This document shows positions 5,303 through 8,482 of a DNA stretch of 64,000 nt, one piece after another. Source of the DNA: a bacterium CG_4_9_14_3_um_filter_65_15 (GTDB lineage Bacteria; Krumholzibacteriota; Krumholzibacteriia; LZORAL124-64-63); the NCBI GenBank assembly GCA_002790835.1, contig PFVX01000056.1, positions 24,508 through 88,507 of the forward strand, read 5' to 3'. A program made the position numbers and the translations under genes. A model generated the notes under the pieces. The model made no database searches. It had not been told where the DNA came from and worked only from the letters and a program-made list of their open reading frames with translations. Numbering within the stretch: the first letter of the stretch is position 1; every line of letters begins with the position of its first letter.

Positions 5303-8300
5303 TCACTTCACCAGGGCCATCCGGCCCACAGCCGTGTTGTCCCCGCTGGTCACCATGTAGAAGTACACGCCTGCGGCCGCCGCACGGCCCTGGGTATCGT
5401 CACCGTTCCAGGCCACTTCGTGCGAACCGGCCGGGCGCACGTCCTCCAGCAACGTTTTGACCTTGCGGCCGGCAAGATCGAAGACGACCACGCGGGTGGG
5501 CGCTTCCTTGACCAGGTCGAAGCGGATGACGGTCCGGGGGTTGAAGGGGTTGGGGTAGTTGCCGGCCACCCGGAAGGCTGCCGGAACATCCCCTTCATCC
5601 GGTACGGGCGAGGCGGCACACACGTCCAGCGCCCCGATCAGACCGCACCCGGGATTGTTGGCCGCGGTGCAGGGGGAAGTGGATTTGAGGCCGTAGTTGC
5701 CGCCGGCCGCGTCGCAGAATACCGGGTCGACGGAGATGTTGCCGTCGGTGCCGGTGGGATCGGGGAACCCGGTGTAGTCCGCACCCGCGTTACCATACGC
5801 GTCGTTGCAACTGAATACCGCCGGGGCGGAACCGACCACTAGGCCGTTGCCGAAGGTGGTCCCCCCGGTATTGAAGGCCATCAGGTTGTGCTCCATCGCA
5901 GGTGTGACGCCGGTGACGTAGATCCCGCCGCCGCCCAATCCCGCGCCGACATTGGCGGCCGCGGTGTTTCCGGACAATGTCCCGCTGGGGTTGTTCTGGA
6001 AGTTCAGGCCGCCGCCAAGGTAGGAGGCGGTGTTGCCGGTCAGGACCGAGTGGGAAAGGTCCGCCTGGGGGCAGTCCTGGAGGTTCAGGCCGCCGCCGAT
6101 ACCGGCCGAATTCCCGGTGAAGACCAGGCTGTCTGCAGCGAAGGTCACGCCGCCGAAGTAGGCGCCGCCTCCGTAGGTGATCCCACCGCCCGGAGCCGGG
6201 CTGTTGTCGTCGAAAGTCACGCCGTGCAGGGATGCGGTCCCGCCGGACATATACAGCCCGGCCCCGTTGTTCACGGCGGTATTACCGGCCACCATGCCGC
6301 CGGTCCAGTCAAGGTTGCTGACCCCGCCGGATCCCACGAGATAGACGCCGCCGCCGGTGTTCAACCCCGTATGACCGGTCACGTCGCAGGAGTTCAGGGT
6401 GACGGTCCCGTCGATCACGTGCAGGCCGCCGCCCAACGGGGGATAGGTCAGGTTGCTGGCCAGGCCGGTATTGTCGGCGATGGTGCAGCCGTCCATGCTC
6501 ACGGTGCTGTTGTAGATGAAGATGCCGGCGCCGTAGGTGCCGGTATTGTCGTGGACCGAGACGTTTTCCAGGATCGCGCTGGAGTTGATCAGCGCCATGC
6601 CGCCCCCGCACCCGAGTTCACTCTGGGAGCCGACGGAGCAACCGCTGATTTCCAGGTTGCGCAGGGTCGGAGAAGCATCCCGAACCATGGCTCCGCCGCC
6701 GTAGCGGGCGTTGAAGGGGATGCCGCTGTAGACGGATCCGCCGCCTCCGCTCATGCGGAAACCGTCGATCACCGTAGCCTGGCCGACGGCGCCCTGGAAG
6801 CGGAGCACCGAATTGGCTCCATTGCCGATGACCACCGTGGGATCATTCACCGGATCCCGCGTGGTGAAGTCGCTGCTGAAACCACCGAGGACCTTGAGGT
6901 CGCGATTGGGGACGACCATCGGCGAGGTGACCGAAGCGGTGGCGGTGATGGAAATGGTATCACCCGTGGAGGCCTCGTTGAGGGCGTCGAACGAGTTGCT
7001 GAACTCGTCGGGCACCAGGTGGTTGCGGTCGCCCAGGGCCCGCAGGAGATTGACCCGTCCGGCGCCGAGCTTGCCGGCGTAGGTCGGGTTGAGGGCATCC
7101 AGGTTGTCACAGCTGCCCAGGAGAAGGTCCGTCACCTCGGTGCGGGTCAATCCGGGGTTGGCCGACCAGATCAAGGCCGCAGCCGCACAGGTGATGGGTG
7201 AGGAGAAGCTGGTCCCGTCCACCGAGGAATAGGTGTGGTTGGCCGTGTTGCGGTCGTACCACGTGGTGTAGATGCCCACGCCGGGGGCGGACAGCTCCAC
7301 CCAGGTTCCGAAGTTGGAGAACGACGCCTTCAGGTCGCTCTGCTGGGTGGCCGCGACGGACAGGACGTTGGGATGCGTGGACAAGTAGGAGGGAACGCCC
7401 AGGCCGGAATCATTCTCGGCGTTGTCGTTGCCGGCGGCGGTGACGACGATGGCGCCGTAGCTGACGGCCAGGCTGACGGCACCGGCCAGATAGCTGGTGG
7501 AACCCCAGCTGCAGTTGATGACCTTGGCCCCGTTGGTGGCCGCGTAGATGATGCCCTGGCTGGCGAAGTCCATGCGGACCACACCCTGGGTCGAACCGTT
7601 GGGCAGCCACCCCACACGCACGGGCATGATCTTCACCCCGTGGGCCACACCCGCGATGCCGATTCCATTGTTGCCGATTCCGCCCACGCAGCCGGCGCAG
7701 GCGGTGCCGTGGCTTTCGTAGTCCATGGGGTCGTTGTCCGGGGTGGAGTCGTCCTCGCCCGGCCAACCTCCGCCGGGAACGTTCACGAAGTCCCAACCGC
7801 GGATGTCGTCAATCTTTCCGTTGCTGTCGTCGTCCACCCCTGCGGTCCCGTAATACTCGGCCCAGTTGGTCCAGATGGCGCCGTTGACATGATCGGGGCC
7901 GCTGCCACCCAGGTCCGGGTGTTGCCAGTCGACCCCGGAATCCACGATGGCCACCATCACGTTGGAATCGCCGAGGGCCTGGTTCCAGGCGCCGACCGCT
8001 CTGACGTCGGCTCCACCGGCGGTCATGTTGCGCGCGTACCACTGGCTTCCGGAGAGGGCGGGATCATTGGGCAGGTAGCCGTAATTGCGGCAGATGTCCA
8101 CCAGACGAACATCCTCCACCAGACCGCTGGCGGCAAAGGCCGCCCGAACGCGTTCCAAACCCATGGAGGCGGGAAAGTCGATGGCCAGAGTCCGGTCGAG
8201 CTGTCGGCGAACGCTCTTGTCGGCGATTTTCGCGGTCAAGCCGGCGTAAAGGGGCTCCACGTTGTGGATCTCGAACCGGCTCGCCAGCTCGGCCATGGCC

Positions 8301-8482
8301 GGCACTTCGGCGACGGTTCCGCCGGCGGCCTTGGACGTGGAAAAGGCGACTCCGGGCTTGAGGGTCACGACGATCCGGTCGGGCACCTGGCCGACAACCG
8401 AACTGTTTTCGAAAGCCAGACCAGAGGCCGCAAGACCGATGAGCAGAGAGCAGGTGAGGACGAGCACCGACACGGACTTCAT
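5303..8482 (-). CDS. Secreted subtilisin-like S8 serine peptidase with propeptide, long parallel beta-helix region and C-terminal T9SS (Por) sorting domain
   Basis: Signal peptide [23 protein letters not shown]. Catalytic triad motifs [16 protein letters not shown] and GTSFSSP. About 450 aa of Gly-rich beta-helix repeats follow. The C-terminus [16 protein letters not shown]...[10 protein letters not shown]...[10 protein letters not shown]...GVYFYMV matches the T9SS type A sorting domain. Confidence 0.85.

Follow-up and report, generated by a model that had tools for sequence, protein, structure and literature searches.

A predicted pre-pro-subtilase of Krumholzibacteriota with a C-terminal tail of the type IX secretion kind

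Introduction

The window analysed here, a 64,000-nucleotide stretch of contig PFVX01000056.1 from bacterium CG_4_9_14_3_um_filter_65_15 (assembly GCA_002790835.1), carries on its minus strand a gene for a subtilase of 1059 residues whose last part resembles a C-terminal sorting domain (CTD) of type A, as known for T9SS, the type IX secretion system. This locus raises the question whether this tail could act as a signal for export through the outer membrane, in which lineage it would do so, and what the protease might do once exported. An earlier note on this DNA had read a 1059-residue open reading frame (ORF) with an Asp/His/Ser triad in S8 order, about 450 residues of Gly-rich parallel β-helix and a tail of the Por/T9SS type A kind, and had gone on to propose an FCB-type lineage (Fibrobacterota, Chlorobiota, Bacteroidota), a Gemmatimonadota- or Eisenbacteria-like host and a surface-attached degradative protease. 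The analysis presented here favours, with a probability of about 0.6, a pre-pro-subtilase of Krumholzibacteriota that would be exported in two steps with the help of a T9SS-type tail; we infer its export, processing and substrate from the sequence. The domain reading of the earlier note proved right by hidden Markov models (HMMs) and by the structural model, and its host had to be replaced.

Results

Domain architecture of the subtilase

An AlphaFold (AF2) model of the full protein was calculated from 61 orthologs, with a mean predicted local distance difference test (pLDDT) value of 83.8 and a predicted TM-score (pTM) of 0.72. From the N-terminus, the model consisted of a signal helix (residues 2-19), an α/β pro-domain (~29-133), a disordered junction (135-145), a subtilisin core (~150-485) and an unbroken β-solenoid (~487-935), with pLDDT above 90, followed by a disordered linker (957-979) with pLDDT below 50 and a terminal β-sandwich (984-1057).

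Direct reading of the N-terminus revealed Lys2, about 20 hydrophobic residues and small residues preceding E25, and the consensus of the orthologs in this region ends in A-x-A, followed by a conserved stretch of 12 residues. Residues 1-24 are thus predicted to form a Sec signal peptide, as expected of a type A CTD cargo. A lipoprotein signal was rejected, since the residue before Cys11 is Thr, and Cys11 itself stands too near the N-terminus and is not conserved among the orthologs.

Pfam Peptidase_S8 (PF00082) matched residues 173-461 with 159.3 bits (gathering score 21.8; E = 1.6e-46). D181 (in DSGVD), H258 (HGT), the oxyanion residue N352 (GN) and S425 (GTSFSSP) follow each other in S8 order, as the earlier note had read for the triad, and all four were invariant in 61 of 61 orthologs. 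Together with the subtilisin α/β fold and the pro-domain N-terminal to it, these residues show an S8 domain that is, as far as conservation tells, catalytically intact.

The β-helix which follows the protease was likewise found where it had been claimed, as a rigid, right-handed, three-stranded solenoid of about 450 residues with 19% Gly. It was recognised by its fold, given that the β-helix repeat model TIGR03804 remained under its cutoff on the subtilase (11.5 against 19.45 bits) and that PF13229, which is precomputed for several orthologs, was not reported at E ≤ 1. Many residues of the helix are invariant and its cysteines are conserved across the orthologs; at its end, C946 shows no variation in the 61-ortholog alignment, and C938 and C955 hardly any. 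By analogy, this helix end and the linker behind it may be the cleavage site for a CTD peptidase.

The C-terminal domain

NCBIfam model TIGR04183, the T9SS type A sorting domain, matched residues 976-1053 with 29.6 bits in the full protein and with 35.1 bits when the CTD was scanned alone, in both cases above the cutoff of 23. This scoring had been suggested in the earlier note, and it backs the likeness to Por/T9SS type A domains that the note had drawn from the motifs FDLAGRKV and GVYFYMV, both of which are present. In NCBIfam, the models for PorU, PorZ, M6i and M36 also matched the window CTD through their own CTD segments. When CTDs of the family were tested, 28 of 28 passed the curated cutoff of TIGR04183, with E ≤ 5e-5 for this model as well as for the CTD segment of PorU; the M6i CTD segment was matched by 27 of 28, and a FlgD model by only 19 of 28. 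Altogether, the family CTDs matched the CTD segments of Bacteroidota PorU, M6i, M36 and PorZ more often than they matched FlgD models. In Pfam, CHU_C scored 14.2 on the CTD of the window protein, and Por_Secre_tail (PF18962) is precomputed on about one fifth of the listed protease orthologs.

The CTD stands at the exact C-terminus of every ortholog, after a disordered linker. PNPFNP (977-982), G1005, W1025, G1038 and Y1040 are invariant among the orthologs, and K1059, the last residue of the terminal GRMALVK, occurs in 90% or more of them. In RgpB of Porphyromonas gingivalis, the exchange G699R within F695-DMNGRR701 stops secretion, and a Lys-containing C-terminal strand, conserved as KLIKK in Tannerella, is needed in P. 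gingivalis (PMC11285876). Matched by eye from the motif text, FDLAGRK with G1005 corresponds to FDMNGRR with G699, and the ending ALVK to the terminal Lys strand.

A model of the CTD alone (pLDDT 87.6) showed seven strands, the last of which ends two residues short of the C-terminus, so that the protein carries at its extreme end, behind a flexible linker, a seven-strand Ig-like sandwich of the ~70-100-residue size. Foldseek searches with this model retrieved PorU (6za2, TMq 0.68), PorZ (5m11) and the isolated RgpB CTD (7pq4), and also DUF3244, Fn3-like domains of the streptococcal C5a peptidase, FlgD, and CTD chains in SprA translocon complexes.

Use of the tail on other proteins

Of 1.84 billion cluster representatives searched exhaustively with the CTD profile, 370,005 matched at E ≤ 0.001; a word-indexed search for homologs of the CTD by itself had given only five short fragments. 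A terminal copy was present in 94 of the top 149 proteins. Within these 149 proteins, the match ran through the last strand of the profile in 49% of the terminal copies and in none of 678 internal ones, and PNPF was found in 61% of terminal compared with 12% of internal copies. The last residue was K or R in 67 of the 94 proteins with a terminal copy, with ...LLK, ...VLK and ...LVK as typical ends.

The terminal tail was joined to unrelated cargo, comprising CotH with LTD, FG-GAP with Fn3, C25 peptidase, BNR/sortilin and ASH/HYDIN proteins, and TIGR04183 was passed by all four proteins with unrelated cargo that were tested. Within Krumholzibacteriota, the OFTM315 locus L019 (6014-14103) contains two convergent, adjoining CTD-tagged genes: the first encodes a 1511-residue LTD and InhA-like MAM protein with the CTD tail, and the second a 1162-residue protein with FG-GAP and an S11 D-Ala-D-Ala carboxypeptidase/β-lactamase fold, on which Por_Secre_tail passes with 29.5 bits. 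The same tail is carried by a Big_1/invasin protein on L088, an unlabelled ENA contig that bears the protease ortholog P0068, and by cargo at the Krumholzibacteriota-labelled locus L051. Being modular, confined to the C-terminus and provided with a last strand of its own, this use looks like that of a sorting signal.

Three further observations concern the proteins that carry the domain. A surface-sorting tail is unusual on a protein such as the S11 carboxypeptidase of L019. On the Gemmatimonadota bin29 chromosome CP070758.1 (L070, 141-16705), five successive ORFs on the same strand, of 613, 736, 194, 2191 and 807 residues, end in the same type of CTD and make up a cluster of genes for tailed cargo. 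Many of the proteins P0126-P0166 from the profile search are giants of up to 5,972 residues with 8-15 tandem internal FlgD_ig-like repeats, in which the terminal tail's last strand is missing; one true terminal copy is often present in them too.

Sorting signal or structural module

Several results weigh against a T9SS signal. They speak instead for a CTD that would be merely a structural Ig-like module of the FlgD type, for spacing, adhesion or stability, on a protein which would cross the inner membrane by Sec and then remain periplasmic or leave through the type II secretion system, vesicles or lysis. Por_Secre_tail was sub-threshold on the CTD (17.3 against a gathering score of 27), whereas Pfam FlgD_ig (PF13860) passed at residues 989-1046 (31 bits against 27). 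The CTD profile was nearer to solved FlgD (7eh9, E = 4.6e-5) than to the solved PorZ CTD (5m11, E = 0.21), and Foldseek E-values were similar for T9SS CTDs, FlgD and Fn3-like domains, so that the fold alone does not discriminate among them. In the profile search, the top summed scores were those of proteins in which the domain is repeated internally, in up to 15 tandem copies, from which it follows that the family does not occur at the C-terminus alone.

The same side of the balance holds the results on the machinery. None of SprA/Sov, PorV, PorK-N/GldK-N, PorU and PorZ was detected in Pfam and NCBIfam scans of essentially all genes of the window or in ~14 kb of flanking sequence. However, the ~78 kb visible make up only ~2-3% of a genome of 3-4 Mb (contigs with orthologs reach 2.85 Mb, P0057, and 3.84 Mb, P0068), and the absence of T9SS core genes from them is therefore uninformative. 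The proteins with a C25 peptidase and a CTD, namely P0229 and six encoded at loci of related phyla, scored 64-90 bits with the PorU equivalog, far from its cutoff of 420, so that no canonical PorU was found among them; their genes are not followed by a PorV-like ORF of ~400 residues, and no porU-porV pair was seen. As a test of the machinery, these C25 proteins were rejected as evidence either way. In the literature searched, no paper linked T9SS to Krumholzibacteriota or dealt specifically with it in the sister candidate phyla; T9SS is accepted as possible in other FCB phyla (PMC11285876).

Against a purely structural role stand the exact C-terminal position behind a disordered linker in every ortholog, and the last basic strand, PNPF and the K/R end, which mark terminal copies and not internal ones. 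The TIGR04183 result in all 28 family CTDs, and the loop Gly and terminal Lys strand as motifs required in P. gingivalis, point the same way, as do the sharing of the tail by unrelated cargo and a taxonomic range that mirrors the FCB phyla. On balance, we consider a purely structural module, the main alternative, unlikely, and T9SS-type export of the subtilase, as read from its tail, likely. Because PF18962 stayed below threshold while FlgD_ig was above it, the CTD is, by these scores, the FlgD-Ig-like variant that is typical of the FCB phyla other than Bacteroidota.

The other genes seen around the subtilase had no bearing on T9SS. Those scanned in the window were of a housekeeping kind (pyrR/B/C/K/D, glgA, glgC, an M16 peptidase and an extracytoplasmic function (ECF) sigma/anti-sigma pair), with a ClC channel, a two-component system, tetratricopeptide repeat (TPR) proteins and cytochromes in addition, and the extension of the contig by ~14 kb at both ends added only genes for electron transfer flavoprotein, resistance-nodulation-division efflux, major facilitator superfamily and glycosyltransferase proteins. 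The only match with a T9SS name was a weak and partial one of the PorW/SprE model (47.6 against 250 bits) to a 662-residue TPR protein encoded directly 3' of pyrC (43577-45562, plus strand); the TPR models of YbgF and BamD matched it equally well, and it is a lead at most and provides no evidence of T9SS.

Host lineage and taxonomic spread

The placement check that the earlier note had suggested for pyrB puts the contig in Krumholzibacteriota. The pyrB product of the window (41231-42172) shares 100% identity with a protein from 'bacterium CG_4_9_14_3_um_filter_65_15', and among its top 120 matches (84-96% identity) all taxon-specific labels were Krumholzibacteria, -iia or -iota, next to the dolphin-oral metagenome-assembled genome (MAG) DOLJORAL78_65_58; the named relatives lay at 84-92% identity. 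For the protease, more than 120 near-full-length orthologs were found, mostly of ~1050-1070 residues and with 48-70% identity, whose taxon-specific labels were Krumholzibacteria and one 'Gemmatimonadales'. By these best-hit labels, which are not a tree, the host is a member of Krumholzibacteriota and not the Gemmatimonadota- or Eisenbacteria-like organism proposed before. Over the same Krumholzibacteria assemblies, pyrB kept 84-96% identity compared with 48-70% for the protease, an unusually high conservation of aspartate carbamoyltransferase across a class-level group.

The FCB part of the earlier proposal stands in the literature, where Krumholzibacteriota are counted in the FCB superphylum (PMC10936416), and it is for this reason that the inference holds; it has no counterpart in the NCBI taxonomy, which places Krumholzibacteriota directly under Bacteria without an FCB node. 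The spread of the CTD motif is consistent with it. A contig scan of species-representative genomes with the ortholog alignment was dominated by the CTD peptide [FY]PNPFNPxT and recovered few true Krumholzibacteria orthologs, and we used it as an unplanned census of the motif. Among the best 80 loci of the matches listed, 68 were taxon-labelled, and 67 of these lay in FCB-type phyla. The 68 labels were Ignavibacteriota/Chlorobiota (17), Cloacimonadota (15), Bacteroidota (7), Marinimicrobia (6), Calditrichota (5), Zixibacteria (4), KSB1 (3), Fibrobacterota (3), Balneolales/Balneolia (2), Krumholzibacteriota (2), Gemmatimonadota (2), GN15 (1) and uncultured 'Deferribacteres' (1). The carriers were thus mostly non-Bacteroidota FCB phyla. 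In several of the census phyla, relatives were matched over most of the protease; on the Gemmatimonadota chromosome L070, the match covered residues 33-1059, with 38% identity in the best segment.

Proposed export and function

According to the two-step export that we favour, Sec would first bring the precursor into the periplasm, with the pro-domain chaperoning and inhibiting the protease there. A T9SS-type outer-membrane translocon would then read the CTD through the Gly of the β3-β4 loop (FDLAGRK) and the basic terminal strand (GRMALVK) and move the subtilase to the cell surface. A C25-type sortase might cleave the linker (~957-975), with the protein being released or attached to a surface glycolipid, and autoprocessing near 135-145 would activate the protease. 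The β-helix could serve as a stalk, as a glycan-binding module, or as both, keeping the protease on the surface or at a distance from it, and the role of the enzyme would be extracellular protein degradation or the processing of surface proteins. The surface-attached degradative protease of the earlier note is plausible in these terms.

A different role under the same export would be that of a dedicated surface-maturation or housekeeping protease, which would process other CTD cargo or envelope proteins, with the β-helix docking to a surface glycan, and not that of a nutrient scavenger. Such a role would agree with the number and identity range of the near-full-length orthologs, with the invariant residues and conserved cysteines of the β-helix, with a gene order kept at ~55% identity around the single such gene of the window, and with the resemblance of the helix to CASH-type folds that bind or act on carbohydrates. 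Yet the synteny may reflect slow rearrangement only, the flanking queuosine salvage, HAD and hydrolase genes have no evident link to the protease, which has its own probable terminator, and the relatives found across many FCB phyla are what would be expected of a common extracellular protease. We regard a specialised maturation role as improbable. Similarly doubtful is a further proposal drawn from the motifs, by which the tail 'PNPFNP ... GVYFY ... [RK]MxL[LV]K' would be the signal of a T9SS variant or of a distinct outer-membrane export or anchoring route, and the protease a phylum-wide surface-maturation enzyme. The sortase of such a route would not be a canonical PorU, because the C25-CTD proteins fell so far below 420 bits.

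The architecture of a secreted hydrolase with a T9SS-type tail is very common, and the orthologs are already automatically annotated as 'S8 family serine peptidase'. On its own the gene carries little weight, and its use is mainly that of a marker: a Krumholzibacteriota genome appears to use an FCB-type C-terminal sorting tag, which is found on other cargo in the phylum as well. With one tag shared by several Krumholzibacteriota cargo proteins, a T9SS-like route of export is predicted for this candidate phylum, where the literature searched reported none. Beyond this locus, CTDs of the FlgD_ig-like variant are extremely abundant outside Bacteroidota, where the matching machinery, the sortase above all, is poorly documented.

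Comparison with known systems

S8 proteases secreted by T9SS are known from Tannerella forsythia as the KLIKK subtilases, mirolase among them. Mirolase is from Bacteroidota and has no β-helix, its T9SS dependence is shown whereas that of the window subtilase is inferred, and the CTD of the latter differs in being a PNPFNP/FlgD_ig-like variant that fails PF18962. Deseasin MCP-01 of Pseudoalteromonas sp. SM9913 (PDB 3vv3) is gammaproteobacterial and has neither a β-helix nor a T9SS-type CTD; its C-terminal extension we take to be a different module.

The CTDs of P. gingivalis RgpB, PorU, PorZ and HBP35 share with the window CTD the seven-stranded Ig-like sandwich at the extreme C-terminus, a Gly at the start of strand 4 (FDMNGRR and FDLAGRK, respectively) and a basic terminal strand. 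Sequence similarity to them is weak, as the E value of the PorZ CTD with the family profile illustrates, and the window CTD has, unlike the P. gingivalis CTDs, the invariant PNPFNP and the FlgD_ig affinity typical of non-Bacteroidota FCB phyla. The Ig-like domain of the FlgD hook cap (PF13860) is the best Pfam match to the CTD, solved FlgD structures gave the best sequence matches to the CTD profile, and FlgD is among the top fold matches. However, by Pfam the window protein has no FlgD N-terminal domain, its neighbours are queuosine, HAD and glycosyltransferase genes in place of a flagellar context, and the NCBIfam FlgD equivalogs scored 22.5 against 230 and 16.6 against 264 bits; its CTD is moreover terminal, behind a linker, and has a sorting-type last strand.

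The β-helix has 10-14% identity to CASH-type β-helix proteins (NosD, the mannuronan epimerase AlgE4, PL6 lyases and phage capsule depolymerases). Their catalytic residues were not identified in the window helix, which differs from them also in being fused behind a protease. By analogy with these proteins, the helix may bind glycans.

Gene coordinates and coding evidence

The 1059-residue frame which the earlier note had placed at this locus is a genuine minus-strand gene. It runs from an ATG at 8482 to the stop codon at 5303-5305 (Table 1). In the ORF list, the maximal open frame (5303..8581) has a TTG start and 1092 codons, with the in-frame ATG at 8482 giving 1059. M1 was invariant in 61 of 61 aligned orthologs, and an identical gene is carried by 18 public contigs, of which six, independent of each other, have a 1059-residue call. 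Given these two results and the GAGGGG upstream, which may act as a ribosome-binding motif, the ATG at 8482 was taken as the start. GC content was 0.85 at the third (GC3) and 0.52 at the second codon position (GC2), which identifies the frame as the coding one among the spurious GC-rich ORFs. Over the whole gene, GC content was 65.8%, and over the window 65.0%, somewhat below the 66-68% given previously.

The gene is thus intact and ordinary: a decayed or inactive pseudo-protease, or an ORF mis-called in GC-rich DNA, would be in keeping with the many long spurious ORFs on both strands that high GC produces here, and is practically refuted by the codon-position GC, the Peptidase_S8 score, the invariant triad and oxyanion Asn, the confident three-dimensional model, the 18 contigs with an identical gene and the hundreds of orthologs.

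Table 1. Position of the subtilase gene, its encoded parts and adjoining elements in the window
Feature	Residues	Position	Strand	Basis
Hairpin with perfect 33-bp stem		5217..5302	minus	directly after protease stop; RNA fold z = -9.55
Subtilase coding sequence	1059 and stop	5303..8482	minus	ORF list, public gene calls, ortholog M1, GC3 0.85
Ig-like β-sandwich CTD (T9SS type A-like/FlgD_ig-like)	966-1059	5306..5587	minus	HMMs, AF2
Cys-containing helix end and start of disordered linker	936-965	5588..5677	minus	conservation, pLDDT
Right-handed parallel β-helix (~450 residues, Gly 19%)	487-935	5678..7024	minus	AF2
S8 subtilase catalytic domain	146-486	7025..8047	minus	Pfam, AF2
Catalytic codon, Ser	S425	7208-7210	minus	
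Oxyanion codon, Asn	N352	7427-7429	minus	
Catalytic codon, His	H258	7709-7711	minus	
Catalytic codon, Asp	D181	7940-7942	minus	
Pro-domain (~29-133) and disordered junction (135-145)	25-145	8048..8410	minus	AF2 model
Predicted Sec-type signal peptide	1-24	8411..8482	minus	direct reading, AF2 helix 2-19, ortholog consensus
GAGGGG, Shine-Dalgarno-like		8491..8496	minus	8 nt 5' of ATG; read from sequence

Gene neighbourhood

Around the protease (window 3682-18042; L087 and L088), the order HD_5 – HTH_17 – three unannotated ORFs – abhydrolase – HAD – QTMAN_N/GT1, then protease → queF, then radical S-adenosylmethionine (SAM) – queG, is kept in orthologs of only ~55% identity.

The window contains no long inverted repeat other than the hairpin after the protease stop. 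This hairpin lacks a U-run, the 190-nt fold around it reached -108.6 kcal/mol, and it is identical in the contigs L001-L006 of the same species. At distant orthologous loci, canonical terminators with a GC stem and a U-run occupy the same position. The hairpin is therefore the probable transcript end of the protease gene, a putative terminator only, since the U-run is absent, and the protease appears to form its own transcription unit. A dispersed element of the repetitive extragenic palindromic (REP) or miniature inverted-repeat transposable element (MITE) kind was rejected, because the hairpin occurs once in the window and elsewhere only in contigs of the same species. The Rfam match 'mir-2831' (49 bits; gathering score 90) was dismissed as an artefact of the long hairpin. 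Between protease and queF no preQ1 riboswitch was found, nor any Rfam family at the locus.

The neighbours related to queuosine are queF, queG and a QTMAN_N-type glycosyltransferase, which resembles the N-domain of the eukaryotic queuosine-tRNA mannosyltransferase, with a radical-SAM gene adjoining. The three syntenic ORFs lie at 11608-12426 (minus), 12689-14671 (plus) and 14674-15294 (plus) and encode ~270, 660 and 206 residues; none of them had a Pfam or NCBIfam match, and the 660-residue ORF had no sequence match in the PDB either.

Elsewhere in the window, two pairs of ORFs on the plus strand overlap by several hundred bases: glgA (31274-32902) with a PAS-GAF histidine kinase (32341-34671), and an unannotated 444-residue ORF (59585-60919) with a phosphodiesterase-family protein (60546-62369). 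In public contigs the overlapping ORFs are called shorter (399 and 474 residues), which points to alternative upstream starts in GC-rich DNA and not to frameshifts. Finally, a multi-haem cytochrome (1458-2555, plus strand), in which a paired-CXXCH domain is combined with a weak MtrC/MtrF-like one, adjoins the queG and radical-SAM genes, and it fits with the richness of Krumholzibacteriota MAGs in secreted multi-haem proteins (PMC11495043).

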